From a plasmid, in sequence record NZ_CP010801.1: a stretch of 64,000 nt of DNA. One strand, 5' to 3'. Shown here piece after piece: positions 1 through 40,210 of the stretch. The notes under the pieces are model-generated. The model did not search any database. It saw nothing but the letters and a program-made list of their open reading frames with translations, and was not told the origin of the DNA. A program made the translations under genes and the position numbers. Position 1 is the first letter of the stretch. Every line of letters starts with the position of its first letter.

Positions 1-40
1 TGCCATTGAGGTTCCCCCTATCGCCAATACAAGGTAAGCC

Positions 41-4879: not shown

Positions 4880-5487
4880 TGCTCAAATCCCGTACTCTTC
4901 TCGCCACGGCATCGCTTTGCCTGACCTGCGGCGCAACGCAAGCCCAGCAACCGGTGGCATTGGGCGCTAGTGCCCCCATGGCAGTACCGGCGTCCGCAAC
5001 ATCGGCAGCGCCGCCGGCCATGCAGGTGGTCAACAAAGTCAACACGCCGATGTCGCAGCCGGGTTCGCGTGCCGATCAGCTGTCGCAGCTGAATGCGGAA
5101 ATCCCACTGCTTGAGGCACAGGCAAAGATCGCGAAGCTGAAGGAGCAAATCGCGCACCCTTCCGGCGGCTCCCAGGGCCCCCAATCGGCTGCACCTGGCT
5201 TTGGCATTGGCAGTGCTCCATCTCCCCTTGGCGTGGCTGCGCAAGGTATCGGTGTCCCTGCTCAGTCTATCCAAGCCAGCGCAGGCAAGGCGGGCGCACG
5301 CACGTCCCAGCCGCAGGTGCTGGCGATCACGGGCTACAACGGCAAGCTCCAGGCAATCGTCCGTATGGGCGCCGAGCAACACATCGTTAACCGCGGCGCT
5401 ACCGTGGACGGCTGGCTCGTCGCTGATGTGATGCCATCGGCAGTTGTGTTTTCGCGGTCCGGAAAATCGGTAACGATCCGCCCGTGA
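4876..5487 (+). CDS. pilP: PilP-like type IV pilus biogenesis protein
   Basis: Signal peptide. C-terminal beta-rich domain (ITGYNGKLQAIVRMGAEQHIVNRGATVDGWLVADV) typical of PilP/GspC-like proteins. Confidence 0.5.
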   Translation: MMLKSRTLLATASLCLTCGATQAQQPVALGASAPMAVPASATSAAPPAMQVVNKVNTPMSQPGSRADQLSQLNAEIPLLEAQAKIAKLKEQIAHPSGGSQGPQSAAPGFGIGSAPSPLGVAAQGIGVPAQSIQASAGKAGARTSQPQVLAITGYNGKLQAIVRMGAEQHIVNRGATVDGWLVADVMPSAVVFSRSGKSVTIRP

Positions 5488-7310: not shown

Positions 7311-8356
7311 AATTCTTTAAGCCCGGGCTGTCTTGGTCGACGCGCAAGATGCTATATCAGCAGTTGGCGTCGCAGCTCGACAACGGCCGTCCGCTCGTCG
7401 AGGCAATGGAGGACTTCCGCGATCGATTGGCGAGACGCGGGCGTAAAGGGCTGGCACAGGCGATGCGTGAAGCCACCAGTTGCCTGAAAGACGGAAAGAC
7501 CTTTGTGCAGTCGATGGGGCCAACGCTCTCGCCAATGGAGCGCAGTGTGCTGGCATCTGGCGAGAAGGCAGGCCAGTTGACCAATTCGATGCGCCTGGTG
7601 CTCGACGTTCGCGATCGTGTAACGCGCATACAGCGCAAGGTGATGAGCTACTTCACCGCACCGATTGTGTACCTGATCACTCTGCTGGCCTCGTTGTACG
7701 TCATCGGCTCAAGCGTTGTACCGCCACTGGCGCAGGTAGTGCCTGTAAGCAAGTGGACGGGATGGGCCTATGGGATGTATCTGATGGGAGCCGTCGCAAC
7801 GGGATGGGGGATGGTAATTACGGTTTCCCTCCTGGTCGTGCTAGGCGCCACGGTCATCTGGTCACTTCCACGCTGGACGGGCAGGGGACGAGCCTTTTGC
7901 GACCAATATGTCTTTCCCTACAACGTCTATCGCGAAGTGCAGGGCTTTGCATGGCTGCTGTCGTTCACCGCGCTTTTGCGCGCGGGCGTGCCAGACACCA
8001 CCGCACTGCAAGATCAGCTGACATCAGCCTCACCGTGGCTCGCGTCGCGCTTGCGACCTGTGATGATCGGTTTGCGCGACGGCCTTAACTTGTCGGCCGC
8101 ACTGCGCCGAACCGGGCTGGGCTTCCCCTCGATCGACCTGATCGATGAAGTTGCCGCCTACATGAACTTCCCGGATTTTCCGGAAAAGATTGACAACGTT
8201 GCGCGGGACTACTCCGAATTCCTGGAACGCAAGATGATGATCATCGGCGGAGCAATCGGCGGCGTGTTCTCGATGGCCATGTTTATGGCCTTTGGTGTCA
8301 TCACCATCGGTGCCAATACGATTTCGGATCTCATCACAAAAAGCGTTGGAGCGTAG
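7307..8356 (+). CDS. pilR: PilR-type (GspF-family) polytopic inner-membrane platform protein
   Basis: 349 aa with multiple hydrophobic segments. Immediately downstream of the GspE-type ATPase. Coupled start. Confidence 0.6.
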   Translation: MKFFKPGLSWSTRKMLYQQLASQLDNGRPLVEAMEDFRDRLARRGRKGLAQAMREATSCLKDGKTFVQSMGPTLSPMERSVLASGEKAGQLTNSMRLVLDVRDRVTRIQRKVMSYFTAPIVYLITLLASLYVIGSSVVPPLAQVVPVSKWTGWAYGMYLMGAVATGWGMVITVSLLVVLGATVIWSLPRWTGRGRAFCDQYVFPYNVYREVQGFAWLLSFTALLRAGVPDTTALQDQLTSASPWLASRLRPVMIGLRDGLNLSAALRRTGLGFPSIDLIDEVAAYMNFPDFPEKIDNVARDYSEFLERKMMIIGGAIGGVFSMAMFMAFGVITIGANTISDLITKSVGA

Positions 8357-8548
8357 TGCCGGGGCGTTCGTAACAATTGAGTGTTGACATGGTGTCCTAT
8401 TGGGCTTTTTTTTGCTTTACAATCTTCTAAGGATGCGCAACAGCCCAACTTACAATCTGTCGTTTGATTGTCAGCGTTATCGCGTCGTACGGCTACTGTG
8501 CTTGGTAGTTCCTGTCCCCCAATATTCTTTCTTCTGTGAGGTCATTCG

Positions 8549-9073
8549 ATGGATTCAATTCTTGGTCGTATCGCTGCGACCGTTCTCGGCCTGTTGGTTC
8601 TTGCCGCAGTTGGTCTGGGCATCTACAAGGCGTTCTCAGGCAACAAGGTCGGTCAGACCACCACTGATCTGAGCTTGCTGCAAACCAACGCGCGCGCGCA
8701 GTACAGCCAGGGTGCTAACGGCTACGCGAACTTCAACGTCGCAGCTGGCACGCCGACCGCTGGCATTGTGGATTCGACCGGTAATTCGGCGGTCATTCCG
8801 ACCGACATGCTGCGTGCAGGCCGGGTCGTGGACGCATGGGGTAATGACGTGACGATCGCTCCTACGTCGAACAACCAGCAATTCGCTGTGACGGTTGGCG
8901 GCACGGGTCTGACCGCAAGCCAGTGCTCGCAGATCCTCACCAGCCTGACGGGCTGGACCCGGGTTGCCACAAGCACCGGTCAGAGTTTCACGACCGGGAA
9001 TCCCCCCGATGCCACAACCGCCGGCGCTGCGTGCATGAACGACGGCGAAACCATTACGGTCACTATGCAATAA
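8549..9073 (+). CDS. pilS: PilS-like type IVB (thin-pilus) prepilin
   Basis: 174 aa. N-terminal hydrophobic pilin-like segment (RIAATVLGLLVLAAVGLGIY) followed by a T/G/N-rich beta domain. RBS GAGG 7 nt upstream. Preceded by a 190-bp non-coding region with TTGACA and TACAAT boxes. Confidence 0.5.
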   Translation: MDSILGRIAATVLGLLVLAAVGLGIYKAFSGNKVGQTTTDLSLLQTNARAQYSQGANGYANFNVAAGTPTAGIVDSTGNSAVIPTDMLRAGRVVDAWGNDVTIAPTSNNQQFAVTVGGTGLTASQCSQILTSLTGWTRVATSTGQSFTTGNPPDATTAGAACMNDGETITVTMQ

Positions 9074-9113
9074 ACCGTTTCGCTATCGTCAATACGGCCG
9101 GCGCAGCCGGCCG

Positions 9114-10211
9114 TTGCCTTTCTACCGTATTCCCGCTTTACCCCGACAACCACAGCGCGCAGAAGACCGTCGTGACATGCATCTGACCCCGCCTACGCCG
9201 ACCGACGACGCGGTCATCAGTGCCATCGATCCTGCCGAGGCGGATGGGGCGGCGTCGCGCCTCGCGTTCCTTGAATTCTCCGACCTGTACCTGGAGCCTA
9301 ACGGTGCCGCTTGGTACAAGACCGCACCGGACGACAACGTTCGCAACACCCTGGAAGGCCCATATCTTGAGGATGTGCAGTATCTGCGCGAGCAGTTGCT
9401 CAAGCACGTCGGAAGCGTGGATTTTCTGATGGACATCCAGGGGGTACGACTGCGCGTGCAGTGCATCTCCACAGTCGACGGCGACGTGTATGTGTGCCGC
9501 CGAGCCGCGAAGACACCGATGCCGGTAGAACGGCTGGGCTACCCGGCAGAATTGATCAAGTCGCTCCTGTCTGACGCATTCACTGGCGGTGGCCTCATTC
9601 TGTTCACAGGTGCCACCGGCAGCGGAAAAAGCACATCGCTCGCCTCCATATTGGCCGCGCGCCTGAAGTTGTTTGGCGGGGTGGCGTGGACTGCTGAAAA
9701 TCCGGTCGAGACGCTGCTCCATGGCACGCATGGTTCTGGCGTCTGCTACCAAACTGAAGTACCTCGCGATGAGGATTTTGGGATGGCCATCCAGCGCATG
9801 TTGAGGGGCGCGCCGAACATCATCGTCATTGGCGAGATCCGCAGCGCTAAAGCTGCGGCTCAGGCCGTACTGGCGGGCACGAGCGGACATCTCGTGTTGT
9901 CCACGCTGCACGCCAACGACATCCAGTCTGCGCTGCATCGTCTCAAAAGCATGCTCGTCCACGAAGGACTGGATGGTGCGTTTCTTGGCGACGCTATGGG
10001 GGCAGTGCTGCATCAATCGATGTCTTATGCGCGCGCACCAGATCGCAACCGTCGCGTCGTGACCGTGTCTCCTCTCATCGTAGCCGGCAGCCGTAACGCT
10101 ACGGCCATCCGCGCGCATATGCGCGGCGGCGAATTTCATCAGCTGTCCTCGGAAATCGAACGCCAGAAACGGGTGCTACTGATTCCCGGGCAAGCAGGAG
10201 GAATGCTATGA
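9114..10211 (+). CDS. Second GspE/PilT-family ATPase (PilT/PilU-like)
   Basis: Walker A GATGSGKST, Walker B IIVIGEIR, His-box LVLSTLHAN. An alternative start at the internal Met (9177) is possible. Confidence 0.7.
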   Translation: MPFYRIPALPRQPQRAEDRRDMHLTPPTPTDDAVISAIDPAEADGAASRLAFLEFSDLYLEPNGAAWYKTAPDDNVRNTLEGPYLEDVQYLREQLLKHVGSVDFLMDIQGVRLRVQCISTVDGDVYVCRRAAKTPMPVERLGYPAELIKSLLSDAFTGGGLILFTGATGSGKSTSLASILAARLKLFGGVAWTAENPVETLLHGTHGSGVCYQTEVPRDEDFGMAIQRMLRGAPNIIVIGEIRSAKAAAQAVLAGTSGHLVLSTLHANDIQSALHRLKSMLVHEGLDGAFLGDAMGAVLHQSMSYARAPDRNRRVVTVSPLIVAGSRNATAIRAHMRGGEFHQLSSEIERQKRVLLIPGQAGGML

Positions 10212-10687
10212 GCTTCGCGTGGGTGCCGATGGCCCTCATGATCTTCTTCGCCGGCCTGATTGCACAAGCATTCGACACCGCCCAGGCGGTGCCCGGGGCG
10301 GGCGCCGCCGGCCAAATGCAGGCTGTCGCTCGCGTGCGCGCGCAGCAAATCGCCGTATTCAGCTCTGCCTGCTCGCAAGCCGCAACGGCGAGTCCAGGTC
10401 TGGTATCTCCCAATATCGCAGTCGCACTGCCCAACGGGGTTGCCATTGCGCCAGGCGCTACATGCATGACCACGTCTGCGCCCGGCGGAGGGCGCTACGT
10501 CTATGCATGGATGCCGGCCAATGGAGGCACTTCCGCACAGGTCTATGCCATCACCCAAAGCGACCGGGCTTGGTGGCGCGTAACTGCCACGGGCATCGGC
10601 ACAAATATGACGGATGCACAGACGCTGGCCTTCCCGGCGAGTATCACGGCGCCTGCCATCGTGCGCTTTACCCAAGTCAACCCGTAA
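10208..10687 (+). CDS. Small membrane/periplasmic pilus protein (PilM-like)
   Basis: 159 aa. N-terminal TM (MALMIFFAGLIAQAF). Sits between the ATPase and the adhesin. Confidence 0.3.
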   Translation: MSFAWVPMALMIFFAGLIAQAFDTAQAVPGAGAAGQMQAVARVRAQQIAVFSSACSQAATASPGLVSPNIAVALPNGVAIAPGATCMTTSAPGGGRYVYAWMPANGGTSAQVYAITQSDRAWWRVTATGIGTNMTDAQTLAFPASITAPAIVRFTQVNP

Positions 10688-10697
10688 GGAATTCATT

Positions 10698-12236
10698 GTG
10701 GACGCAATCATAGGATTCATCGCCGCACTCACGCTCTCTTTGCTGAGCATGGCGGGGTTCGCAAAGTACGCCGACATGGGTGTGCGCAACATTCAGACTT
10801 CAGCGATCGCCAGCCAGGGCCGCGTCATTGACCAGGCTGCTGCGCAATATGTGCAGGACAACGCAGCTGCTCTGGCCGCGAGCGTGCCCGTAGGTGGCGC
10901 AGCCACAACGATCTCCGTGAACACACTCCAGACTGCGGGTTACTTGCCGGGCGGATTTTCGGCAAACACTGCGTTTGGCCAGACGTGGCAGGTGCAAGTC
11001 TCGCAGCCCACTGCTGGGAGGTTGCAAACCATCGTCATGACGACAGGCGGCAATCCGATCACCAACACCGCACAGCTTGCAGGCATTGCTGCGCAGATTG
11101 GGGCAGAGGGTGGTTTCGTGCCATACGCCAATCAAGGTGGTAACTCAGCAATGAGCCCATCCAACGCCAACGGCGCGTTTGGCGCGTGGCAGGTGAACCT
11201 GGGTGCGTCCGGTTTCACCAACGCCGGCTCTGGCCACGTCGCCAACCTGCTGGCCTTCACCAGTCAGCAGTCCAACGCCAACTACCTGTATCGCGTCTCG
11301 GTGCCAGGCCATCCTGAGTTGAACGCAATGCAGACCGACCTCTCGATGCAGGACGTCGGCGGAACAGCACACAACATCGCCGGCGCAAACAACGTCACGG
11401 CCGGCGGCACGGTGACCGGTGGCAAGCTTGTTTCAAACGGTGACGTGAACGCAGCTGGCAATGCCACGATCAATGGCACCCTCAGCGCTGCGGCCGGCCG
11501 CGTTACCGCCTGGAATAATGCGGCAGAGGGTGGGGTCATCACGATGCAAGGCGCCAATGGCGTCAACATGTACGTCGAGAACCTCAACGGGACTTTGCGC
11601 CTGGTCAACAGTCCCTGGAACGCGCAGCTGCTGACTGTTGACCAGTCGGGCAACACCGTGGCCAACGGCGGAGTTTCGTCGACAAACGCGCCGGGCTACG
11701 GGCAGACCACCTTGAATCAGTGGGGCCTTGCAAGCACGGGTGACATCTATGTCGAACCCGCCAACGGCCACAACCTGAATTTGAGCACTACGGCGTGGAA
11801 TGGAACCGGGCAGCTGAACAGCCAATTCGCTCAAAACTGGTTTCAGCATCGCGTCGTCGCGAATGAATATCTTCAGGTCAATGGGGGAGCCAGTCCGAAC
11901 ACGTCGTGTTCTCCGAATGGTATTGCCGCGGTGAATGCTGACGGATCCGGCCAATGGCTGAATTGCGTCTTTGGCACGTGGAAGCCGATTGGCGGCAATC
12001 TGCTGCGCTATGGCAAATACACAGCGACCCACGGGACGTACATTCCAGCGCCCTCGTGTCCTGCAGGCGGTACGGCCATGATTGTGGTCACGCCGGCCAA
12101 TTTCTCAGTCGATACAACCACGACTGTCAATTATGGCGCTTGGGGATCCGGACCTTGGACGGTGTACATCGTCGATGGCGCGTCGTCTCCACTTTGGGGT
12201 GCAACGGCCGCAGTCGGAACGTATTGCGGTTATTAA
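10698..12236 (+). CDS. pilV: PilV-like minor pilin/tip adhesin
   Basis: GTG start after RBS AAGGA. Pilin-like hydrophobic N-terminus (IIGFIAALTLSLLSMAGF) followed by about 480 aa of G/N/T-rich beta domain. Last pilin gene of the cluster. No shufflon or rci seen. Confidence 0.45.
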   Translation: MDAIIGFIAALTLSLLSMAGFAKYADMGVRNIQTSAIASQGRVIDQAAAQYVQDNAAALAASVPVGGAATTISVNTLQTAGYLPGGFSANTAFGQTWQVQVSQPTAGRLQTIVMTTGGNPITNTAQLAGIAAQIGAEGGFVPYANQGGNSAMSPSNANGAFGAWQVNLGASGFTNAGSGHVANLLAFTSQQSNANYLYRVSVPGHPELNAMQTDLSMQDVGGTAHNIAGANNVTAGGTVTGGKLVSNGDVNAAGNATINGTLSAAAGRVTAWNNAAEGGVITMQGANGVNMYVENLNGTLRLVNSPWNAQLLTVDQSGNTVANGGVSSTNAPGYGQTTLNQWGLASTGDIYVEPANGHNLNLSTTAWNGTGQLNSQFAQNWFQHRVVANEYLQVNGGASPNTSCSPNGIAAVNADGSGQWLNCVFGTWKPIGGNLLRYGKYTATHGTYIPAPSCPAGGTAMIVVTPANFSVDTTTTVNYGAWGSGPWTVYIVDGASSPLWGATAAVGTYCGY

Positions 12237-29087: not shown

Positions 29088-30201
29088 CTGTACATATATG
29101 TGGGGTATCCACTTAGCTCCACCAGCACAGGATAACTGGATGGATATACAGTATTCGTATGCTACACCGTCTCGACCCGGTTCACTACATCCGCATACGT
29201 CACAGGGCCGGTAACGACCGCTTGCTGAAGCAGCCGATAGAACAAGAGACCGCGCGAGCCCGAGGTGCGGCGATTGAAGCGGAACACGAACTCATCCAGG
29301 TAGGCGTCCAGATGTTCGGGCTGAACCGAGCCGTGATGCGTGCCGAGAATCCAGCGTTTGACCAGTGAAGCAACCCGATGAACGCCAGCCATCGAAACGT
29401 GAGCTGGCACCTCGGCACCCAGCATCACATTGCGCTGGTGTTCGTAACCCAGCTTGCTCAATGTCCGGTAGGCTGCTGACCCGTCAGTTCTGACTTGGGC
29501 GCCAGGCTCAATCGACGCCTGTATGAACGGGATGACGCATTCGGCGCCATCGTTCTGGATGCGCTGCAAGCGTATCCGGCCGAAGCCCTTGGGCTGAAGC
29601 ATTTCGACCGCAAGGATGACCAGCACTTTGCTCGTGCGGTTCTTGCGGTTGATGGCCGAGATAGGGGCCTCTCGGTCCGTGATGGCCAGGTAGGTCTCGT
29701 CAACCTCTACACACCCCTTCAGGCGTTCGCGGTCCGGTCGCACCATAGCGCGGCGAAACCGGTGCAGCATCGTCCAAGCGGTCTGGTAGCTTCCCAGGCC
29801 TAGCACCCGTTGCAAACCAAGGGCGCTGACGCCTTGCTTTTGATTGGTCAGATACCACGCACCAGCCAGCCACACACGTAGCGGGGTACGGGTCTTGTCG
29901 AATATCGTGCCAGCGGTCACCGTCGTTTGGTGAGCGCAACTGCGACACATCAGGCGCGTGCGGCTCGACCGATAAGGCTCGGCCGCTACGCCGCAATCAG
30001 GGCAAACGAACCCCTGCGGCCACCGCAATCCCTCCAGGTAGGACAGGCAAGCCTCTTCCGTCCCGAACCGGTCCAGAAACTCGTTCCAGTTACGGGGGTA
30101 GTCCTTCCCCGGTTCTGGGGGTAATATCTGCTTTACCTGTATATCCATCCAGTGATTCTGGCATGGCTGGAGCTAAGTGGATAGCCCTTACATATATACA
30201 G
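29088..30201 (-). mobile_element. IS1595-family (ISXO2-like) insertion sequence
   Basis: About 65-bp imperfect terminal inverted repeats (CTGTACATATATGT...GGATGGATATACAG / CTGTATATCCATCC...ACATATATACAG) flank a single DDE transposase. Confidence 0.7.
29162..30148 (-). CDS. IS1595-family DDE transposase
   Basis: N-terminal Zn-ribbon (FGTEEACLSYLEGLRWPQGFVCPDCG). 328 aa. DDE-type core. Confidence 0.8.
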   Translation of the reverse strand: MDIQVKQILPPEPGKDYPRNWNEFLDRFGTEEACLSYLEGLRWPQGFVCPDCGVAAEPYRSSRTRLMCRSCAHQTTVTAGTIFDKTRTPLRVWLAGAWYLTNQKQGVSALGLQRVLGLGSYQTAWTMLHRFRRAMVRPDRERLKGCVEVDETYLAITDREAPISAINRKNRTSKVLVILAVEMLQPKGFGRIRLQRIQNDGAECVIPFIQASIEPGAQVRTDGSAAYRTLSKLGYEHQRNVMLGAEVPAHVSMAGVHRVASLVKRWILGTHHGSVQPEHLDAYLDEFVFRFNRRTSGSRGLLFYRLLQQAVVTGPVTYADVVNRVETV

Positions 30202-30217
30202 TTGTTTCGAGGGTGTC

Positions 30218-30621
30218 ATGGAAGTGCATGTAACGCCACTTAAAAGCAAGGGACAGACCAAACAAAAGTGGTTACGGGCAATGGGCAACGCAGTTGGAAC
30301 GCTGAGAATCCGAGACAAGCGCGATACCGTTAATCTTCGCAGCACGCGCGTTGCAGAGCTCTTCAACCACCGCCCCGTCCGCGCCGAGGGCGAGAAGTGG
30401 ATCCTGTTCGATGTCCAACTTGTCTGGGCCAAGGGGGGCAGTTCCTGCTGTCCGGCTACGAGCGCCACGTCCAGTGGAACGGCGACACTACGGATTACGC
30501 CCAGAGTTGGCTCGTCAGCGTGCCGGCGCCGGGAACGTCGGTCGCGATCGTCCCAGACACCGTCGAGGCACCAAAACAGACGCCGATCGAAGACCCGGCT
30601 GCCGGCAGCCTACGCATTTGA
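30218..30621 (+). pseudogene. Possibly frameshifted small gene adjacent to IS
   Basis: Two overlapping frames join at a G6 run (about 30433-30438). Confidence 0.25.
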
Positions 30622-30627
30622 CCAACA

Positions 30628-31272
30628 ATGAATACATCTGATAGCGGGTTCGTAGAAGTCAAAAGCAAAGTAGCAAAGCCCGAATTGCAGGCATTCATGG
30701 AACACCTGAGCGCCTTCCATGAGGGCGACACGGATGCCCAGCGGGCGGCAGAGATCCGCGCTCAGGACGAGAACGACGGCCTGGATTCACTGAAGCGCCT
30801 ATTCGATCTGGCGAACGGGAGCAGTGGACAGTGCCGTCACGTCGCGCGCTTCCTGCTTGGTCTGTACAACGGCACTCGATTCCCGTTCGATCTGACTGAC
30901 TTCCGATGCGTTGATGCCTCGATCTTTGAGGACATGATGCGAGTGCTGCGGATGGACAGCCGGCCACGGGCAGAAGTCCACACGTATTTCCCGCGCGGCG
31001 GCGAGCGTTTCGAGCAACTGGCGCAGGACTGGAATCTGTACAAGACCGAGTGGGAGCCGGCGGGCAGCGGGTTCACGCGCAGACGCAGCGCGTACCGCCT
31101 CGACATCGAGGCAGGCGTGCGCGGCGAGACGCTGGTGTGGAAGTGGTCTGTATCGCGGTGGGGCGGCGACAGTAAAAAGGTTGCCAGCGGCGCGGCATGG
31201 TCGGCCGAGAGTGCGAAGTACGAGATTGATGCCTGGTTCGAGCGCGGCGGCGAGACGCCTTACGAAGACTGA
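30628..31272 (+). CDS. Hypothetical protein
   Basis: 214-aa ORF with no recognised motif. Confidence 0.4.
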   Translation: MNTSDSGFVEVKSKVAKPELQAFMEHLSAFHEGDTDAQRAAEIRAQDENDGLDSLKRLFDLANGSSGQCRHVARFLLGLYNGTRFPFDLTDFRCVDASIFEDMMRVLRMDSRPRAEVHTYFPRGGERFEQLAQDWNLYKTEWEPAGSGFTRRRSAYRLDIEAGVRGETLVWKWSVSRWGGDSKKVASGAAWSAESAKYEIDAWFERGGETPYED

Positions 31273-31274
31273 CA

Positions 31275-32036
31275 ATGAAAACGGATCTGATCGAAAAGTA
31301 CGCACCGGTGCTCTGTGCGTCGACACCTCCAGTGGTGCGTGACCCACGCCTATTGATGGATGCAAGCGGCGACGTGAAGATCTACTATGCGCCCTTCGAA
31401 TACATCAACCCGAGTGCACGGCTCGTGCTGGTCGGGATCACACCGGGCCCCACCCAGATGGTCAATGCCAACAACGAGGCGCGGCGCGCTCTTCAGGCGG
31501 GCAAGTCCAGCATCGAGGCGATGCAGGCCGGAAAGAGCGTCGGCGCTTTCAGTGGCGAGCCGCTGCGGAGTAACCTGATCAATCAACTCAACCATTGGGG
31601 CTTCCAAAAGTGGCTCGGCCTGAGCGATTCGGCCGACCTATTCTCCAGGTCACAGCACTTGGTGCAGACTACCTCTCTCCTACGCTATCCGGTGTTCGTC
31701 AAGGACGGTGATTACCGTGGCACTCCAGATATGACCAAGCATCCGCTGCTGCGGAAATACCTGCTCGAATACTTTGCGGCGGAGGTCGAGGAGCTCAAGG
31801 AAGCCGTATTTGTCGGTCTCGGGCCACAGGTCCAGAAGGTGCTCGATCGCCTGATCCACGAGCGCGTCCTGAGTCCAGAACGGGTCATCGGCGGGATGCT
31901 GCACCCGTCCGGTAACTGCACATACCGAATCAACTATCTTATCGGTGACAGAAACGCGCCAGTCCCGCACGCCACCAACCCCGTGCCTTACGACCAGGGC
32001 CGACGAGCGTTTCGGGAGCGCTTCATTGGCGCGTGA
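31275..32036 (+). CDS. Uracil-DNA-glycosylase-superfamily-like protein
   Basis: VLVGITPGP (GEAPG-like motif A) and GMLHPSGNC (HPS motif B-like). Confidence 0.3.
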   Translation: MKTDLIEKYAPVLCASTPPVVRDPRLLMDASGDVKIYYAPFEYINPSARLVLVGITPGPTQMVNANNEARRALQAGKSSIEAMQAGKSVGAFSGEPLRSNLINQLNHWGFQKWLGLSDSADLFSRSQHLVQTTSLLRYPVFVKDGDYRGTPDMTKHPLLRKYLLEYFAAEVEELKEAVFVGLGPQVQKVLDRLIHERVLSPERVIGGMLHPSGNCTYRINYLIGDRNAPVPHATNPVPYDQGRRAFRERFIGA

Positions 32037-33120: not shown

Positions 33121-33507
33121 TCAAACCTTGCGGATCGAGCCGCTGTACTGCGCTACGATCGGGTCGGCCGTAACTAGAAGGATGCCTTCCACCAGCGACT
33201 GCGCCACCAGGATGCGGTCGAATGGATCCTTGTGCAAAGGCGGCAGGCTATCGACCATGACCGTGTGCTCACTGGTGATGGGTAATTCCAGATAGCCATT
33301 GTCTAAGAGCCCTCGGCGTAGCAGCCTGGGATCAACGCGAAAGTCCTGCCGGCCCAGTCCTCGCTTGATAGCCACCTCCCACAGGCTGGCAGCGCTGAAC
33401 ACCAGCTCGTGCGTCGGGTCCTGGATGAGAGCGAGCGTGTCGCGCGACAGCTTGTCAGGCTGGCCAGCGGCCCACAGCAGCAGATGAGTATCGAGCAACA
33501 ACTTCAC
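33121..33507 (-). CDS. vapC: PIN-domain toxin (VapC family)
   Basis: MKLLLDTHLLLW...ASLWE...VTAD acidic PIN residues. Overlaps the antitoxin stop. Confidence 0.8.
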   Translation of the reverse strand: MKLLLDTHLLLWAAGQPDKLSRDTLALIQDPTHELVFSAASLWEVAIKRGLGRQDFRVDPRLLRRGLLDNGYLELPITSEHTVMVDSLPPLHKDPFDRILVAQSLVEGILLVTADPIVAQYSGSIRKV

Positions 33508-33743
33508 GCGTCGCCCCCGAACATCTGTTCAATGGCATCGGCACCCATGCGATCGAAGTCCGCCGGCACTGCGATCTCGCCGACCAGGAAGCCAACACGG
33601 CGCGGCTGAGCGGGCGCATCGAGAGCGGTCACCTTGGCCAGCGGCTTGCCAGCCTTGGCGATCACGAAGGATTGGCCTCGGGCTGCCTTGTCGACCAGAC
33701 GCGACAGGTGCGTCTTCGCGTCGTGGATGTTGACGATTTCCAT
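33504..33743 (-). CDS. Phd/YefM-type antitoxin
   Basis: MEIVNIHDAKTHLSRLVDKAARGQSFVIAKAGKP is a Phd/YefM signature. Confidence 0.75.
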   Translation of the reverse strand: MEIVNIHDAKTHLSRLVDKAARGQSFVIAKAGKPLAKVTALDAPAQPRRVGFLVGEIAVPADFDRMGADAIEQMFGGDA

Positions 33744-33754
33744 GACCGACTCCG

Positions 33755-33778
33755 ATTAAACTAAGTTCAGTTAGTTTA
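33755..33778. promoter_or_regulatory. TA operator palindrome TAAACTAA-GTTCAG-TTAGTTTA
   Basis: Perfect 8-bp inverted repeat directly upstream of the antitoxin start. Confidence 0.35.
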
Positions 33779-33820
33779 GTCCGTTCTAGGAAATCATGGT
33801 ATGGCAATCAGCAGAACAAA

Positions 33821-33838
33821 GTGTCCCAATTGGGACAC
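33821..33838. promoter_or_regulatory. parS-like palindrome GTGTCCCAATTGGGACAC (isolated copy)
   Basis: Same 18-bp palindrome family as the six copies flanking parAB. Confidence 0.5.
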
Positions 33839-33889
33839 TCTCTGTGCGCGCATGGGGCTTCAATGACGGGCAGAACTGATGGGCAAGAG

Positions 33890-34705
33890 CTACCGCTTCG
33901 GTGGTGTCGGCACGCCACCGGCGCCGCGCCGATAGGCATCCACGGCGGTCCTGGCTGTTGCCAAGTCGCGCTCAAGCGACTCGATACGGATCCTGAGCAT
34001 GTTGCGTTCTTCAATAAAGGCCTGACGGATACTGTCGGTCTCGACCATGCGCCTACGCTCTGCGCCCTCGAGTCTGTCTGCAAGCGCACTTAACGCGCTC
34101 GGCAGGCCACCGACGCTGCCAGTAAGCTCGCTTTCACGAGCACTCGCCTCTGCTTTGGCCTCGGCCAACTGATTCCGCAACGAGTTCGCTTCAGCTTCAG
34201 CTGCCGATGCTCGCTCAAGCGCCTGCTGCAGCTGGCCGCGCAACGCATGGTTTTCGTCTTCCAGCCGCTCGCAGTGCTGAGACAACCAGGCGCTGTTCGC
34301 GTCACCACTCGACGGCGCTTTCGTCTCGGGGACAGCTGCTGCCTGGGCGGGCGGCACGATCTCACGCACGGCGACCTGGATCTCCTTGTGCACGTAGCCG
34401 CGCAGCCAGTCGTCGCGAACTTCGGGCGTGATCGCCTGCGTCCCGTCTTTCGCGGCCCGGCGCTCGGCTTGCACCGCCAGGAATGTCTGCGCGCTCGGAC
34501 GGCGATTCGTGATGCCGGCCGTGGCCATCAGCCTTCGAAATACCTTCTCGCCGTAGCTCCGGCCAGCAATGCGTTCGATCTGATCGAGCGCATGCCGCAA
34601 GAAATTGCGGTTATCCGGATAGGGATACCGCACGTCCAGTTGTTGTAAGGACAGCAGGATGGCCTGCAACTGGGCGTCGGGAAACGAAGTCGGTGTGCGG
34701 GGCAT
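33890..34705 (-). CDS. KfrA-like coiled-coil DNA-binding protein
   Basis: N-terminal putative DNA-binding region. Long Ala/Glu/Arg coiled-coil. Confidence 0.3.
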   Translation of the reverse strand: MPRTPTSFPDAQLQAILLSLQQLDVRYPYPDNRNFLRHALDQIERIAGRSYGEKVFRRLMATAGITNRRPSAQTFLAVQAERRAAKDGTQAITPEVRDDWLRGYVHKEIQVAVREIVPPAQAAAVPETKAPSSGDANSAWLSQHCERLEDENHALRGQLQQALERASAAEAEANSLRNQLAEAKAEASARESELTGSVGGLPSALSALADRLEGAERRRMVETDSIRQAFIEERNMLRIRIESLERDLATARTAVDAYRRGAGGVPTPPKR

Positions 34706-34803
34706 CGTGGCTCAGCTGACAGCTGTTGCTGGAAATTTCACCTATCGTAGCACTCATCGGCTACTTATTAGAATACTTTTTACACTACGCATTAGGACTA
34801 CGC

Positions 34804-34829
34804 TTTACCATTATTCCACTAATGGTAAA
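34804..34829. promoter_or_regulatory. Perfect palindrome TTTACCATTA-N6-TAATGGTAAA upstream of integrase
   Basis: 10-bp perfect inverted repeat in the AT-rich region 30 bp before the integrase ORF. Confidence 0.3.
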
Positions 34830-34860
34830 ATAAGCTTAGTATCCCGTTCCATAGATCGTC

Positions 34861-36081
34861 ATGGGGCAAAAAATGCCTTATGGAGCACACATGAACAATC
34901 TGACGCCAGTTCCACGCACGCCAAGCAATGCGCTGATCAGCCCGGTGCTGCAGGACGTCAGCACTGACGAGCAGTTGCTTGGCGAATGGCTCAAGGATCT
35001 GTTCAACGCTGGGATGGGAATCAGCCAGAACACGCTGAGCCAATACAGCCTGGAAGGTCGGCGTCTGCTTTGGTTCGCGAACGCGGTCGAGCGTCGATTT
35101 CAGGCGTGGGATAAGCCAACTGCCAACGCCTATCTCACATTTCTCGCGTCACCGCCGGAGCACGCCATCGGCGACTCGCGCACGAAGAATTCCGGTGCCT
35201 GGCGGCCGTTCCGTAAGCCGCCCTCAGCCGCGTCAGTCAAGCAAAGCGCGATCATCGCCAGGAGCTTCTTCAACTGGCTGGTCGATCAGCAAGCGATCCG
35301 GGTCAACCCTCTCCCCCGCCCTCCCCGTTCACGCGAAAACCGCGGCCCGGGCACGCAGCAGCGTTACTTGAACATCACGCAGCTGAAGGCCGTTTTCGAC
35401 GCCATTGCGGCCAGGCCTGCCGAGATGTTCTGGGATCGACTCAAGCAGGACCGTGATCGCATGGTGATCGCCCTCGCCTTCCAAACTGGCTTGCGCGCGT
35501 CGGAGATGGCCGAACTCAGGTGGTCCGACTTCCAGCGCCGGGATGGCAAACATGGCCCCTACTGGGTCATCGTTGTTCGGCACGCCAAGAGCGGCGACAA
35601 CCAGGTAGTGCCGTGCGACGCGGCCATGGAGGAAATCTCGGCGTTTCGCCGCACGATCGGCCTGGGCCCGGAGCCGAAGGCCAACGACACGATAGCGGTC
35701 ATCCCCTGCATCGCCGGCGGCAAGCGCAAGCGTGTGAAGCCGCATGGCAGCCTCGATCTGCAACTTCTGCTGCAGCGAGGGGTGACAACGCGCCACGGCA
35801 TCTACGCGATCGTCAAGGACGCTTTCAAGCAGGCGGCCGACCTCCTCAGGGACCTAGGCGACGAGCTCAGCGCCGACGGATTGGAGCACGCTTCAACCCA
35901 CTGGCTGCGCCACAGTGCAGCCACACACCTGCTGCGCTCTGGAAAATCAGTAACGAATGTCCAGCGCGTGCTGCGGCATCAGGACATCAATACGACGCGC
36001 AGATACACGCACGAGGAGATGGATGATCTGGCGCACGATGTCAGCGATGGGCTGATGCTCGACAACATCTTACGAAAGTAG
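34861..36081 (+). CDS. Tyrosine site-specific recombinase/integrase
   Basis: C-terminal HWLRHSAATHLLRSG...LRHQDINTTRRYTH (R-H-R-Y catalytic signature). Confidence 0.8.
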   Translation: MGQKMPYGAHMNNLTPVPRTPSNALISPVLQDVSTDEQLLGEWLKDLFNAGMGISQNTLSQYSLEGRRLLWFANAVERRFQAWDKPTANAYLTFLASPPEHAIGDSRTKNSGAWRPFRKPPSAASVKQSAIIARSFFNWLVDQQAIRVNPLPRPPRSRENRGPGTQQRYLNITQLKAVFDAIAARPAEMFWDRLKQDRDRMVIALAFQTGLRASEMAELRWSDFQRRDGKHGPYWVIVVRHAKSGDNQVVPCDAAMEEISAFRRTIGLGPEPKANDTIAVIPCIAGGKRKRVKPHGSLDLQLLLQRGVTTRHGIYAIVKDAFKQAADLLRDLGDELSADGLEHASTHWLRHSAATHLLRSGKSVTNVQRVLRHQDINTTRRYTHEEMDDLAHDVSDGLMLDNILRK

Positions 36082-36132
36082 CCCCCTACCCTGCTGGCTC
36101 GGTCTGACGTGGCTGTTGCCGGGCATTAGCAC

Positions 36133-36150
36133 CGTGTCCCAACTGGGACA
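36133..36150. promoter_or_regulatory. parS-like palindrome copy
   Basis: GTGTCCCAACTGGGACAG. Confidence 0.5.
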
Positions 36151-36232
36151 GTTTTTAATCCGCCCTTTTCCCGACGAGAATTGTTATCGGATCGGGCTCG
36201 AATGCTCGCGAATGTCGTCCTTCGCTTGCAAA

Positions 36233-36250
36233 GTGTCCCAGTTGGGACAG
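36233..36250. promoter_or_regulatory. parS-like palindrome copy
   Basis: GTGTCCCAGTTGGGACAG. Confidence 0.5.
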
Positions 36251-36337
36251 TCAACCGAAGACAGGGCTGGGACAACCTACCTCTGTTTCGCGCGCCTACT
36301 GTAGGGTGATGCCACTCCCCTACCCCGCACCTCAAAA

Positions 36338-36355
36338 CTGTCCCAACTGGGACAC
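36338..36355. promoter_or_regulatory. parS-like palindrome copy
   Basis: CTGTCCCAACTGGGACAC. Confidence 0.5.
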
Positions 36356-36495
36356 TTCAGCGGCGACTCCGGAATGTCCGCGCACAAGATACTGCAATAA
36401 CGAACACCGCAAATAGTTCGCCTTGGCTGCAAAGCGCCGAACAGCCCTCCTAACTTGCCGCACCTTCCCTTTACAGCAGCCCATACCATCGAAAA

Positions 36496-36513
36496 GTGTC
36501 CCAAATGGGACAC
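36496..36513. promoter_or_regulatory. parS-like palindrome copy (in parA promoter region)
   Basis: GTGTCCCAAATGGGACAC. Confidence 0.5.
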
Positions 36514-36588
36514 TTTCACAGTCAATCCTTGCCTTGCCTGATAGTTACGTCTATCGTGCACGGAAATCATCAACAACGTACACGATCC

Positions 36589-37419
36589 ATGAGTGAATTC
36601 AAGAATGCCAAAGTGATTGCGATCGTCAACCACAAAGGCGGTTGCGGGAAGACGACCACGACAGTCAACCTGGCCGCGGAGTTCGCCAGGCAAGGCAATC
36701 GCGTCCTGGTTGTCGATCTGGACCCTCAGGCAAACGCCACACTCCATATCGGCAAGGTCCACCCCTCCAACGTCGAAGTCTCCGCAGCTGATTTGCTGAC
36801 CGGCGACCACAGCCTGCTTGCGCCCTCGGTCCAAGACGACACCACCATCGATGGTGTCTGCCTGATTTCGGGCAGTCTGGCACTCGGCAAGGCCGAAGAC
36901 GAACTTAAAGACTTGTCGCCGCGGCCAAACGAAGAATTGCGCAGCAAGCTGTTGCCAGCGGACTCGGTCTTCGATGTCATCCTCATCGACTGCCCGCCGA
37001 GCCTGAAGCTGCTGGCGAGCAACGCGCTCGCCGCGGCTACGCACGTTATCGTGCCCATCGAGGCCGGCGATCAGTATGGCCTGTACGGCGCAGAGGATCT
37101 GCTCAAAAAGGTTGCACAGATCCGCAGGATCAACCCGAATCTCGAAATGCTAGGCGCTTTGCTCATTAAATACGACGACCGCCAGACCATCTGCAAGCTG
37201 CTCGCAGGCCAAGCCGAACAAACCTTTGGTGCGCTGTTGCCAGAAAAGATTTCTCAGGGCACGGCGGTTCGACAGGCTGTCGTGATGAAGACCAGCGCGC
37301 ACGGCATCGATCGGGGGTCCAAACCAGCGCGCCAGTTCCGCGCGCTCGCGCAAGCGCTGGCCCAATCTCTCAAGCTCAAGGTCGGAGATGAGACACCGAT
37401 CGAAGGGGCTGAAGCGTGA
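36589..37419 (+). CDS. parA: ParA/Soj-family partition ATPase
   Basis: Deviant Walker A KGGCGKTTT. Start at internal Met 36589. Confidence 0.85.
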   Translation: MSEFKNAKVIAIVNHKGGCGKTTTTVNLAAEFARQGNRVLVVDLDPQANATLHIGKVHPSNVEVSAADLLTGDHSLLAPSVQDDTTIDGVCLISGSLALGKAEDELKDLSPRPNEELRSKLLPADSVFDVILIDCPPSLKLLASNALAAATHVIVPIEAGDQYGLYGAEDLLKKVAQIRRINPNLEMLGALLIKYDDRQTICKLLAGQAEQTFGALLPEKISQGTAVRQAVVMKTSAHGIDRGSKPARQFRALAQALAQSLKLKVGDETPIEGAEA

Positions 37420-38303
37420 GCAAGAGCATCAAGGAAATGCTGGCGCGGCAGGCTGCCGCAAACATCAAGCAGCATCGCGATGCGGACTACGCCGTGGATT
37501 TTGACGCAGGCCGCCAGCACACCAAAATCCCGCTTCAACGCATCCAGCCAGGCCGCTACCAGCCGCGCATGAAGTTCACGGAAGCCAGCATTCGTGAATT
37601 GGCGGAATCGATCGCGGCCATAGGTCTGACGCAACCGATTATCGTGCGCCCGTTGGGTGAAGCGTATGAGCTCATCGCTGGCGAGCGGCGTCTGCGCGCG
37701 CATCGTCTGCTCAACAAGCCGACCATTGAGGCGATCATCGTCGATGTAGACGATGCTACAGCCGCGGCCATGTCGTTGTCAGAAAACATTGATCGCGAGG
37801 CGCTGACTGATTTCGAGGTAGCAGAAGGTCTGCGTCGCTTGGAGGTGGAATTCCCGAAACGGGCCCATCTCGCCAAGGCCATCAATATCTCGCGCTCGGA
37901 GCTCTACCGATACCTTGCGTTCCGCGACTTGCCTGAACCCGTGATCGACCGGCTACGAGTCAATCCCGGGTTGATCGGCAGAAGCGCAGCCTCCGAGATT
38001 TCGCAGGCCATCAAGGCAGTGCCCAAACTTGCCCCGAGACTTTTAGAAGCATTGGATCTCGTTGAGGCCGGCAAACTCGAGCAGGGCAAGGTGGTCGCAT
38101 TCCTCCAGCAGAGTATCGCGGAGCGGCGGAGCAGAACGGAAGCCGAGCCGACAACCTACTTGATACACGAAGGAGCGCGCGTCGGTTCGATCGTCGCGAC
38201 GCCCAAAGAATTCGTCATCAAGGTCTCGCAGGTAGCGCTGCCCGAGAGCAAGGCAAAGCGTCTGCACGCCTTTCTGACTGAATTGCTGGCCGCCGACGAA
38301 TAA
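37416..38303 (+). CDS. parB: ParB-family partition protein
   Basis: ParB N-domain LIAGERRLRA box. Coupled to parA. Confidence 0.75.
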   Translation: MSKSIKEMLARQAAANIKQHRDADYAVDFDAGRQHTKIPLQRIQPGRYQPRMKFTEASIRELAESIAAIGLTQPIIVRPLGEAYELIAGERRLRAHRLLNKPTIEAIIVDVDDATAAAMSLSENIDREALTDFEVAEGLRRLEVEFPKRAHLAKAINISRSELYRYLAFRDLPEPVIDRLRVNPGLIGRSAASEISQAIKAVPKLAPRLLEALDLVEAGKLEQGKVVAFLQQSIAERRSRTEAEPTTYLIHEGARVGSIVATPKEFVIKVSQVALPESKAKRLHAFLTELLAADE

Positions 38304-38321
38304 GTGTCCCAGCTGGGACAC
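38304..38321. promoter_or_regulatory. parS-like palindrome copy
   Basis: GTGTCCCAGCTGGGACAC immediately after the parB stop. Confidence 0.5.
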
Positions 38322-38408
38322 TGTCACGCTGATCTCGGGGCGCGTACATGCGCGCCTCCTTGAGTCAGTGCTGATTTGAGGGCACCACTCGAATATTTCC
38401 GCTGCAAG

Positions 38409-38426
38409 GTGTCCCAAATGGGACAC
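38409..38426. promoter_or_regulatory. parS-like palindrome copy
   Basis: GTGTCCCAAATGGGACAC. Confidence 0.5.
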
Positions 38427-38439
38427 TTTCAACGCTGAT

Positions 38440-39010
38440 TTAGGGGCGCTTTTTAAAGCAGGCTCCTGAGCCGCGCTGATTTAGGGGCGTTTTCACGCTG
38501 ATCTGGGGGCGCGATCTTCGCCACACAACCATTTTCACGCTGATCTGGGGGCGTTGCTGTCGACCGGTCACGCTGATTTAGGGGCGCAGTTACTAAATGG
38601 CGTATTTGGATCAACGCTGAACTAGGGGCGCTCGGCCCCGGCCGATGCGATCAACGCGGTTATTCAATGCGGCTCGAGCGGTATTGCCGCCGCGTCGGCG
38701 AGAGCGACGATGCCACGCTGATCTGGGGGCGCTTTGCTTTGGATGTCACGCTGATCTGGGGGCGCTTGCGCGATCTCCCGACGCTGATCTGGGGGCAAAA
38801 CGCACCGACGATCTCGTGATGCGGGCCGGCCGCGAGGGCTACGCTGATGTGGGGGCGCTGTTTCTTACCGGGATTGTGGATAAGGCCTGTGGAAAACCAC
38901 AGTTATTCACGCTGATCCAGGGGCGTCGCCACGCTGAAGTGGGGGCACTGCAGCGCTGATCCAGGGGCGAACGTACGCTGATCTAGGGGCGCTTTAACGC
39001 TGATCTAAGG
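38440..39010 (+). repeat. Iteron array (about 15 direct copies of ACGCTGATCTGGGGGCG) followed by AT-rich tract, an oriV-like origin
   Basis: Repeats of consensus CACGCTGAT(C/T)T(G/A)GGGGCG at irregular 18-60 bp spacing. 39011-39110 is AT-rich. Confidence 0.7.
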
Positions 39011-39255
39011 GCTAAAATTTTCACAAACCATTGAATTTAAAGAGAAAATTCCGTATCTAGTTTACTGATATTAGGTATTAACTTCATAGATTTACTGGTA
39101 AGACGACGCGCTTCTGTGGACAACCTCCGGTTGCCCACCATACGCACGCCGTCCACCACGATGGAAGAGATACAGCCAAAGTCAAAACAATCGCCCCCAG
39201 ATCAGCGTGACTGCGGTTTGCGTGCGTGCTATACCGTCGCAAACGTGGAGATAGG

Positions 39256-40210
39256 CATGGCAAAGCCACAGAGCAAACAACCAGACCTGACTGCCCCCGG
39301 TGGCCAAGTGATTCGTCCTACGATCGCTGCAAGGCTATACGAGGAGGCACAAGCAATGGAACTAGCCGACGCGAAAGCGGCTGGAACCATTGGCTTCATG
39401 GGCCGCGCGCTGGTTCAGGCAACGTTACCGTACAGGGAACCTTCAGCAGATCTGCGCGCTTGGGGCCGCCGCGCGGGCAACGTCAGTCTGGTGATCCAAC
39501 CAGGCATGTATTTTGACGAGAACAACGAAGCCCAAAGCATTGGCTTTCCATATGGTTCTTATCCGCGCTTGCTGCTCGCCTGGATTGCCACCGAAGCTTT
39601 TCGAACCAAATCCCGTCAACTCGTTTTAGGGAACCGCCTTACCGACTTTCTGGAGTCCCTCGGCTACACCTCGCAGAACGGTGGGCCACGCGGGAACATC
39701 ACGCGTATCCGCGAGCAGATGAAGCGGCTGTTTGCAGCCCACATCGCAATAGTCTATGGGGGAGGGCAGGGGAGCGATTTCGCACATAAGCCGTTTTTGA
39801 TCGCCGATGACACCGAGCTCTGGTGGGACCCCCAGCGCCCAGACCAAGCGGGCCTGTGGCAGTCGACAGTGACACTCTCGGAGCGCTTCTACGACGAGGT
39901 TGTCAGCACGCCGGTGCCTATCGATCTGCGTGCTCTGCGAGCGTTGCGACAATCGCCGATGGCGCTCGATTTGTACTGCTGGCTGACCTACCGCATGTTC
40001 TCACTGAAGGCTCCAGTGACCGTGCCGTGGGAAGCGCTGAAGCTGCAATTCGGATCGGAAGCCGGGCGCGATCGCAAGTTCAAGGAAGGGATCAGCAAGC
40101 AGCTGCAGCAGGTGCTCTCCGTTTATCCCGCCGGCGTGCGGCCCACCAAGGCCGGGCTCGAACTGAGCCCATCGAAAACAAGCGTGCCACGACTGGTCAC
40201 CGACTGGTAA
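39256..40210 (+). CDS. repA: Replication initiator RepA-like protein
   Basis: Immediately downstream of iterons plus AT tract. Wing-helix-like LDLYCWLTYRM region. An inverted iteron lies in the 5' region (39195-39213). An alternative upstream start at 39116 is possible. Confidence 0.55.

Follow-up and report, generated by a model that had tools for sequence, protein, structure and literature searches.

A stretch of 64,000 nucleotides (64 kb) of the plasmid record NZ_CP010801.1, referred to here as the window and numbered from its first base, carries seven copies of a short palindrome that are very probably the parS centromere sites of a chromosomal-type (Spo0J-like) ParABS partition system on a Ralstonia plasmid. 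The 16-bp core, TGTCCCA-NN-TGGGACA, occurs exactly in seven places, all between 33821 and 38426, against 0.16 expected by chance, and 0/100 shuffled sequences reached that number. Six copies surround parA and parB (four upstream, two downstream) and one lies apart at 33821, as had been described in an earlier reading of this DNA from its letters alone (the sequence-only reading). The parS-like role that was proposed there is supported by the position of the sites in eight related replicons, by their independence of the type of replication (Rep) protein and by their co-variation with the ParB clade. The palindromes are repeated beside the operon, their position is conserved in orthologous systems and their sequence follows that of ParB, which is what distinguishes a parS-type element. 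The kind of element is well known, and what is added is a new specificity variant belonging to a small clade of Ralstonia and Cupriavidus plasmids and phage-plasmids.

The 18-mer GTGTCCCANNTGGGACAC is exact at 33821, 36496, 38304 and 38409, and a search allowing <=3 mismatches returns seven matches, adding those at 36134, 36233 and 36338, each of which departs from it by one mismatch at the outermost base (G1 or C18). The seven 18-bp palindromes reported earlier are thus real as seven copies, but the full 18-mer is exact in only four of them, and the copy that had been placed at 36133 starts one base later. An eighth copy of the core is absent from the window even at 2 mismatches, and the looser pattern TGTCC-N6-GGACA finds the same seven places and nothing more. 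The search for further copies that the sequence-only reading had suggested was also carried 10 kb past either end of the window (20 kb of native plasmid), and no additional copy was found there. These counts cover ~84 kb of a plasmid of 175-190 kb.

The central dinucleotide is free across the seven copies (AT, AC, GT, AC, AA, GC and AA). Successive sites around parAB are 99, 105 and 158 bp apart on the upstream side, where the four copies (36134-36513) occupy a non-coding stretch of ~500 bp, and 105 bp apart on the downstream side (38304 and 38409). The 50-nt flanks of the seven copies are unalignable except for A-rich and T-rich shoulders (AAAG...CTTT), and the sole flank shared beyond these shoulders is the iteron that follows both right-hand copies. 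Because the flanks cannot be aligned, the core appears to have been kept for itself and not through recent duplication.

Relatives of the system came from distant blastn and tblastn searches. Those with a ParB 63-73% identical to that of the window are a Ralstonia pseudosolanacearum replicon (L008), L009, a Cupriavidus oxalaticus phage-plasmid (L001/L013), C. necator (L011/L012) and three phage-plasmid-like contigs (L014/L028, L015 and L016). In these replicons the palindrome lies 15-17 bp upstream of an invariant CTTG...TATCGT parA promoter (alignment A1), the promoter-proximal site being at the matching position in 8/8 relatives aligned. It recurs 1-8 bp past the parB stop codon and is followed by the first iteron (alignment A2). 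The complete phage-plasmid L013 (NZ_CP038638.1; 37,950 bp), for example, has exactly two copies, which flank parAB. The centre of the site in the relatives is CC, GG, CT or AG. Between the window and the R. pseudosolanacearum replicon the intergenic DNA has diverged, and conservation is confined to islands, namely the sites, one half-site and the promoter; the two promoter-proximal sites are spaced by 158 bp in the former and 159 bp in the latter. The isolated half-site, (C)TGGGACA, is found at ~4468-4477 of that replicon and in the window ~70 bp upstream of the 36338 copy, and its conservation tentatively suggests that it is functional.

Other searches added little to this set. PLSDB megablast, queried with the par region and also with a 49-kb part of the window, found no close relative; a scan of a genome collection with ParB peptides gave distant irrelevant matches only; and tblastn of a phage database found no close ParB. 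The 18-mer matched 12 loci in IMG/VR, of which L028 is the only true relative, the other 11 being single matches with neither ParA nor ParB in the DNA examined and hence taken as chance.

The sites do not depend on the mode of replication. For example, L016 has a TrfA-type Rep and unrelated iterons, and L008 has Rep3 with its own iterons and remnants of window-type iterons, and in both the palindromes still flank parAB. parA and parB are the only genes that always accompany the sites. Since the sites are retained where the Rep protein and the iterons differ, the comparison indicates that they travel with parAB and not with the replication module. The parAB cassette has been combined with RepA_C, TrfA or Rep3 replication modules, and its closest versions (L013, L014-L016 and L028) are on phage-plasmids of 36-45 kb that were deposited or assembled as plasmids and carry terminase, portal, capsid, contractile tail and CI/Cro-like repressors. 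Proteins of 677-701 aa with ParB_N and H-NS domains are encoded a few kb upstream of parA in two of them (L014 3600-5705 and L015 5097-7130).

ParB homologues group in clades, and the distant clades have other palindromes at the same two positions around parAB. In the wider family (36-50% ParB identity; L002, L003, L004 and L036-L040) these are 17-bp palindromes. For example, Paraburkholderia and Mycetohabitans plasmids, with a ParB 47-50% identical to that of the window, carry TGTCCAAA-S-TTTGGACA; Chromobacterium pChV1, pM02_c6, A. baumannii pD36-4 and Sulfuricella pSCD (36-41%) carry TGTAGCAA-S-TTGCTACA, a form that is also seen on an uncultured plasmid; and Moraxella osloensis (36-38%) carries TGTGGCAA-T-TTGCCACA. 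The helix-turn-helix (HTH) of ParB likewise changes between clades (HLAKAINISRSELYRYLAF vs KLAESLGIQRSDLYRYLSF), and its RSELYRYLAF helix is conserved within the clade of the window. Because the position is fixed while the sequence of the site changes with the ParB clade, the pattern is the signature of a ParB-parS pair. Two Cupriavidus replicons have a 19-bp form, GTGTCCC[C/T]AAGTGGGACAC, at both their sites (L001 5006-5024 and 6821-6839; L011 9074-9092 and 10888-10906), with one extra base between the arms. This form is asymmetric, and the ParB HTH of these replicons is identical to that of the 18-bp-form relatives L014 and L016.

ParB is of the Spo0J type, with a ParB_N domain bearing the GxxRxxA and ENxxRE motifs (GERRLRA, of the CTP-binding (cytidine triphosphate) type, and ENIDRE in the translation) and an HTH downstream. 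The score of ParB_N (PF02195) is 88.7 bits, and TIGR00180, for which the cutoff is 58, is matched at 132 bits. Residues 34-183 match 1VZ0, 4UMK, 6T1F and Noc by phmmer, and the nearest solved structures are Thermus Spo0J (1VZ0), the Helicobacter ParB-parS complex (4UMK), Noc and Caulobacter ParB (6T1F); ParB matches Spo0J at E = 6e-24 and KorB (8QA8) at E = 1e-8. ParA is Soj-like, with a deviant Walker A motif read in the sequence as KGGCGKTT and 81-95% identity to its relatives. The parA stop codon overlaps the GTG start of parB, which places ParA directly upstream in one operon. Models of the F and P1 types fit poorly, the SopA model scoring 52.8 bits on ParA against a cutoff of 725 and NF010252 (SopB/ParB-P1-type) 21 bits on ParB against a cutoff of 274, the weakest among the ParB-family models. 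A consensus promoter scanner did not call the parA promoter, which falls under its 9-of-12 threshold, and the assignment is made from the phylogenetic footprint, as the eight replicons of alignment A1 do not vary at CTTG in the -35 or at TATCGT in the -10. Type Ia ParAs have an N-terminal repressor domain, but this ParA has no HTH or other DNA-binding domain at its N terminus; autoregulation would therefore probably fall to ParB, and the 36496 site is probably the one through which it would repress parAB.

The motif aligns in register with canonical parS (TGTTTCAC-GTGAAACA; tGTTtCAC-GTGaAACa) at 10 of 16 identical positions, which suggests that the two are related. Both are 16-bp palindromes (TGT-CC-CA-NN-TG-GG-ACA here, TGT-TT-CA-CG-TG-AA-ACA in the canonical site); positions 4-5 and 12-13 are CC/GG in the one and TT/AA in the other, and a free dinucleotide replaces the central CG. 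Canonical parS itself (TGTTTCACGTGAAACA, with central CG and a usual tolerance of <=2 mismatches) is absent from the window at <=3 mismatches, which bears out the earlier statement that the sites differ from the chromosomal consensus. However, they are not a private centromere of this replicon, as had also been claimed, since orthologous ParBs encoded on further plasmids and phage-plasmids of Ralstonia and Cupriavidus appear to use the core as well. Chromosomal ParB/Spo0J systems share the layout of ParB (ParB_N with GERRxRA, HTH and C-terminal region) and the short Soj-like ParA, whereas the present system is plasmid-borne and adjoins an iteron origin.

The parS sites of the Bsr (Burkholderiales secondary replicon) systems, those of B. 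cenocepacia c2, c3 and pBC and of the Ralstonia pickettii 12D and 12J plasmids, are palindromes of 16 bp that recur upstream of parAB (12J has five), tolerate change at the outermost position, and are defined by a central CG and a six-bp core of 2C/2G/1A/1T (PMC5450999). The systems share the host order, a similar type of replicon and an outer-base tolerance like that of the three imperfect copies here. The present motif agrees with Bsr parS in length and palindromy but has CA-NN-TG at its centre in place of the central CG. F sopC likewise has 7-bp arms with a 2-bp separation (TGGGACC-AC-GGTCCCA; PMC3177203), but the order of the arms is opposite (TGTCCCA..TGGGACA vs TGGGACC..GGTCCCA), and the F sites lie in tandem 43-bp repeats holding TGGGACCACGGTCCCA, whereas the spacings here are irregular and the flanks unrelated. 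Type Ia ParAs are of ~390 aa with an N-terminal regulatory domain, unlike the 276-aa ParA of this system. A literature search of incomplete coverage found no paper that names the motif as parS, and its matches to GTCCCA were F sopC. Equivalent repeats flanking parAB in pChV1 were proposed to have a role in circularisation or recombination (PMC5871888). The comparison made here suggests that those repeats are better explained as parS.

Two further systems have sites away from the par operon. In KorB-OB of IncP (RK2), a ParB-family protein binds palindromic sites, some of them distant from the operon, and reaches distant promoters by sliding; its ParA partner IncC likewise has no repressor function of its own. 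KorB acts at about a dozen operators, distributed among promoters across the plasmid, and is partnered by KorA. In contrast, six of the seven sites here flank parAB and the origin, and a dispersed operator set of that type was not found in ~84 kb, as all seven copies fall within 4.6 kb; the similarity of ParB itself to KorB is weak. The phage-plasmid N15, whose centromere sites are scattered away from the par operon, offers a precedent for a displaced copy, and close relatives of the present system are also on phage-plasmids.

The sequence, positions, conservation and co-variation of the sites allow a mechanism to be proposed. A ParB dimer would bind each site by its HTH, each monomer reading one TGTCCCA arm and the two central base pairs remaining unread. 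As ParB keeps the motifs GERRLRA and ENIDRE, its binding at parS is expected to load CTP-dependent clamps, whose sliding across the nearby few kilobases would form a partition complex. The Walker ATPase ParA would then move partition complexes apart on the nucleoid and so bring about segregation. The site 15 nt upstream of the parA promoter would let ParB repress parAB, and the two right-hand sites sit at the edge of the iteron origin. The exchange of TT for CC in each arm, together with the free centre, may allow the centromere to escape a host chromosomal ParB that reads canonical parS.

The outlying copy at 33821 is the only fully symmetric one, its halves TGTCCCAA and TTGGGACA making a perfect 18-mer, and it is kept in the native plasmid variants L032-L035. 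ParB clamps spread over several kilobases, and by its distance from parAB the copy is most likely an additional ParB loading site within reach of such spreading. With it the ParB-covered zone would reach leftward, across the recombinase gene and the coiled-coil gene, as far as the edge of phd-vapC, and any transcriptional effect there would be secondary to loading. Relatives also have extra sites 0.8-1.5 kb from parAB, with no integrase block present (in L014/L028 the site comes right behind repA, while L003 has one 1.15 kb upstream and L038 one 0.84 kb downstream). The sequence-only reading had offered the outlier as a possible mark of the original extent of the partition region before an integrase-gene block was inserted. 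A toxin-antitoxin (TA) pair beside parA in C. necator (L011) was considered as a trace of an ancestral TA-parS-parA arrangement and rejected, as it is not orthologous to the phd-vapC of the window. The idea of a relic boundary is without support, because no plasmid variant lacking the recombinase/coiled-coil block was found among the contigs read with the identical ParB (four distinct places), there is no compositional break, and the C. necator pair is not orthologous; moreover, the extra sites of the relatives lie apart from parAB in the absence of such a block.

The 33821 copy stands 51 bp past the stop codon of the gene for the coiled-coil protein, and on its other side the phd ATG is 77 nt away, with the copy upstream of it. 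The phd-vapC homologues in other Ralstonia replicons (L047-L049) align only over ~50 nt upstream of the ATG and lack the site, which places the copy just outside the control region of the mobile TA cassette. The cassette has a palindromic operator-like element of its own, CTAAACTAA-N6-TTAGTTTA, just upstream of the start (window 33744-33800), which is common to the cassettes in R. solanacearum and R. chuxiongensis replicons (L047-L049 ~2950-3000), and it also has a conserved 72-aa open reading frame (ORF) after vapC.

Several points weigh against the assignment of the palindromes as parS. The support for it is comparative throughout, and the census of the sites spans only ~84 kb of the plasmid and no host chromosome. 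The 33821 copy is within ~80 nt of the phd start codon, so that a regulatory role is possible. The centre of the promoter-proximal site does not overlie the -35 but lies ~25-30 bp upstream of it, and direct steric repression is for this reason not evident. Finally, the 17-bp core of the two Cupriavidus replicons is accompanied by an unchanged HTH, which a rigid dimer model fails to predict.

If ParB were chiefly a KorB-like regulator, the palindromes would be operators, ParB acting from the copy at 33821, directly or by sliding, would repress phd-vapC, affect the coiled-coil gene or do both, and addiction would be coupled with the expression of the partition genes. This is unlikely, although several points favour it: the outlier precedes the phd ATG by about as much as the parA-proximal site precedes the parA ATG (75 nt), TTGCC(A/T) follows both of these sites by 13-15 nt, so that the TTGCCA hexamer after the outlier stands at about the distance of the parA -35, ParA is without a repressor domain, which makes ParB the likely autoregulator, and KorB is detectable as a homologue of ParB. 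However, no convincing sigma-70 promoter was found for phd near the outlier, there being no usable -10 at the right spacing after TTGCCA. Homologous cassettes share the proximal ~50 nt and the CTAAACTAA...TTAGTTTA operator and do without the palindrome, and the resemblance of ParB to Spo0J far exceeds that to KorB. Of the seven sites only one is remote from par and the origin, and none is at any other promoter in ~84 kb, unlike the dispersed operators of KorB. An operator role would be compatible with the centromere role, but even as a side effect of the 33821 copy a regulation of phd-vapC is rather doubtful.

The remaining explanations turn on the neighbours of the sites and are both highly improbable. 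The palindromes could be targets of the tyrosine recombinase, used in multimer resolution or inversion, with the copies at 33821 and 36134 bracketing a recombinable segment; the recombinase and coiled-coil genes lie exactly between these two copies, and recombination or circularisation was the role suggested for the equivalent repeats by the authors of the pChV1 study (PMC5871888). However, L001/L013, L015 and L016 keep the sites around parAB with no recombinase nearby, the sites co-vary with the ParB clade, and the native contigs read all share one arrangement, none showing an inversion or a deletion. The geometry is also at odds with such a role, as tyrosine recombinase cores have crossover regions of 6-8 bp between longer arms, whereas the free spacer here is 2 bp and the arms are 7 bp. 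The interleaving of two copies with iterons, and the terminator-like score of one copy with its T-run, would fit elements of the origin (auxiliary sites for Rep or host factors) or hairpin terminators, but the sites stay with parAB after replacement of the Rep protein and iterons (TrfA in L016, Rep3 in L008), four tandem copies stand upstream of a promoter, and Rfam gives no match. Over ~35% ParB divergence the arms are invariant with no compensatory changes while the loop-equivalent centre varies, which argues for recognition by a protein and not for an RNA structure.

A more far-reaching proposal joins two claims, namely that the ParB family forms a natural series of centromere specificities and that the Ralstonia ParB is gaining a KorB-like regulatory reach through the displaced site. 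Within such a series a three-base block of the arm would be swapped (CCC, CCA, AGC or GGC in TGT-NNN-A...T-NNN-ACA), and the spacing of the half-sites would vary (16-bp vs 17-bp cores) even with an identical recognition helix. The conjunction of the two claims is quite improbable. If the series were real, it would provide a compact system for the spacing tolerance of ParB dimers and would show how new compatible centromeres originate on plasmids and phage-plasmids.

With the palindromes taken as parS, the analysis supplies a candidate centromere sequence for a plasmid with a wide distribution in Ralstonia, a genus that is often a reagent contaminant. As the core is common to Ralstonia and Cupriavidus plasmids and phage-plasmids, partition-mediated incompatibility among them is predicted, as is compatibility with host replicons whose parS is canonical or of the Bsr type. 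The co-varying parS series, the unconstrained centre and the 16/17-bp spacing with an identical recognition helix are points of mild note in an otherwise standard ParABS arrangement, which would not surprise specialists and opens no new question.

The gene context (Table 1) matches the earlier description, with a PIN toxin and Phd on the left, a tyrosine recombinase, parA and parB, after which come the iterons and repA. An exception is the gene at 33890-34705, which had been called kfrA-like: its product has no KfrA_N match, even at E <= 10 on the N-terminal 120 aa, and shows no significant similarity to the KfrA_N protein of one relative. The 17 iterons fill the entire gap between parB and repA, and a tandem run of five immediately precedes a promoter-like site at 39020-39049. 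The 104-aa ORF is probably not a gene, being inside the iteron field and without a family match. On native contigs repA is called as 39257-40210, and it is 317 aa in L032.

Table 1. Features of the partition region and its surroundings (window coordinates; parS denotes the predicted centromere sites).
Feature	Position	Strand	Remarks
vapC (PIN toxin)	33121-33507	-	family match
phd antitoxin	33504-33743	-	family match
Outlying parS copy, GTGTCCCAATTGGGACAC	33821..33838		exact 18-mer; sole fully symmetric 8+8 copy
Coiled-coil protein, 271 aa	33890-34705	-	without KfrA_N match
Tyrosine recombinase	34861-36081	+	family match
parS copy, GTGTCCCAACTGGGACAG	36134..36151		exact core, outer base 18 mismatched; 53 bp past recombinase stop
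parS copy, GTGTCCCAGTTGGGACAG	36233..36250		exact core, outer base 18 mismatched
Half-site TGGGACA, isolated, tentative	36269..36275		conserved island in window/L008 alignment
parS copy, CTGTCCCAACTGGGACAC	36338..36355		exact core, outer base 1 mismatched; position kept in L008
Promoter-proximal parS copy, GTGTCCCAAATGGGACAC	36496..36513		exact 18-mer; 15 nt upstream of conserved -35
Putative parA promoter (TTGCCT, 17 nt, TATCGT)	36529..36557	+	invariant columns, eight-replicon alignment A1
parA	36589..37419	+	AAA_31/CbiA/ParA Pfam matches; 276-aa Walker-type ATPase
parB	37416..38303	+	ParB_N, TIGR00180; 295-aa ParB/Spo0J-type protein
parS copy, GTGTCCCAGCTGGGACAC	38304..38321		exact 18-mer; begins on first base past parB stop codon
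Iteron field, replication origin	38323..39015	+	17 iterons of ~22 nt (ACGCTGATCTGGGGGCGC); neighbours the centromere, not part of it
parS copy, GTGTCCCAAATGGGACAC	38409..38426		exact 18-mer; among iterons, iteron directly next
104-aa ORF	38645-38959		inside iteron field; no family match
repA (RepA_C family)	39116..40210	+	PF04796, E = 8e-37

The host replicon is a large Ralstonia plasmid of roughly 175-190 kb. An identical ParB, titled 'MULTISPECIES [Ralstonia]', occurs on contigs as long as 190 kb and in 95 listed blocks of the collection; contigs of the plasmid include JARXZA010000010.1 (175 kb), RARR01000013.1 (187 kb) and CDRNCM010000004.1 (179 kb). The seven sites and the gene order are unchanged in four distinct places from independent assemblies. 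Elsewhere in the window are a RecD2 helicase, Sak and YqaJ recombination proteins, a primase and insertion sequences. Positions 1-12236 hold the genes of an R64-like thin pilus (type IVb), among them one for a shufflon-type PilV protein, and VirB/Trb-type type IV secretion genes lie directly past the left end of the window (L044 1-10000). The presence of the R64-like pilus set beside type IV secretion genes suggests that the plasmid is probably conjugative, with a variable pilus tip adhesin.

A variable junction is found ~2 kb from the TA cassette (window 29162-31272 vs L032 1-3811). To the left of a 253-aa ORF (31275-32036), the window has an IS1595-family transposase and a DUF7673 gene, and other assemblies of the plasmid have Tn3-family and Mu-like transposases. 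Fragments of the Ralstonia ParB also occur on contigs of ~400 bp labelled as E. coli, Salmonella enterica, Francisella tularensis, Streptococcus pneumoniae and Corallococcus, and these fragments in non-Ralstonia assemblies are most likely Ralstonia reagent contamination.

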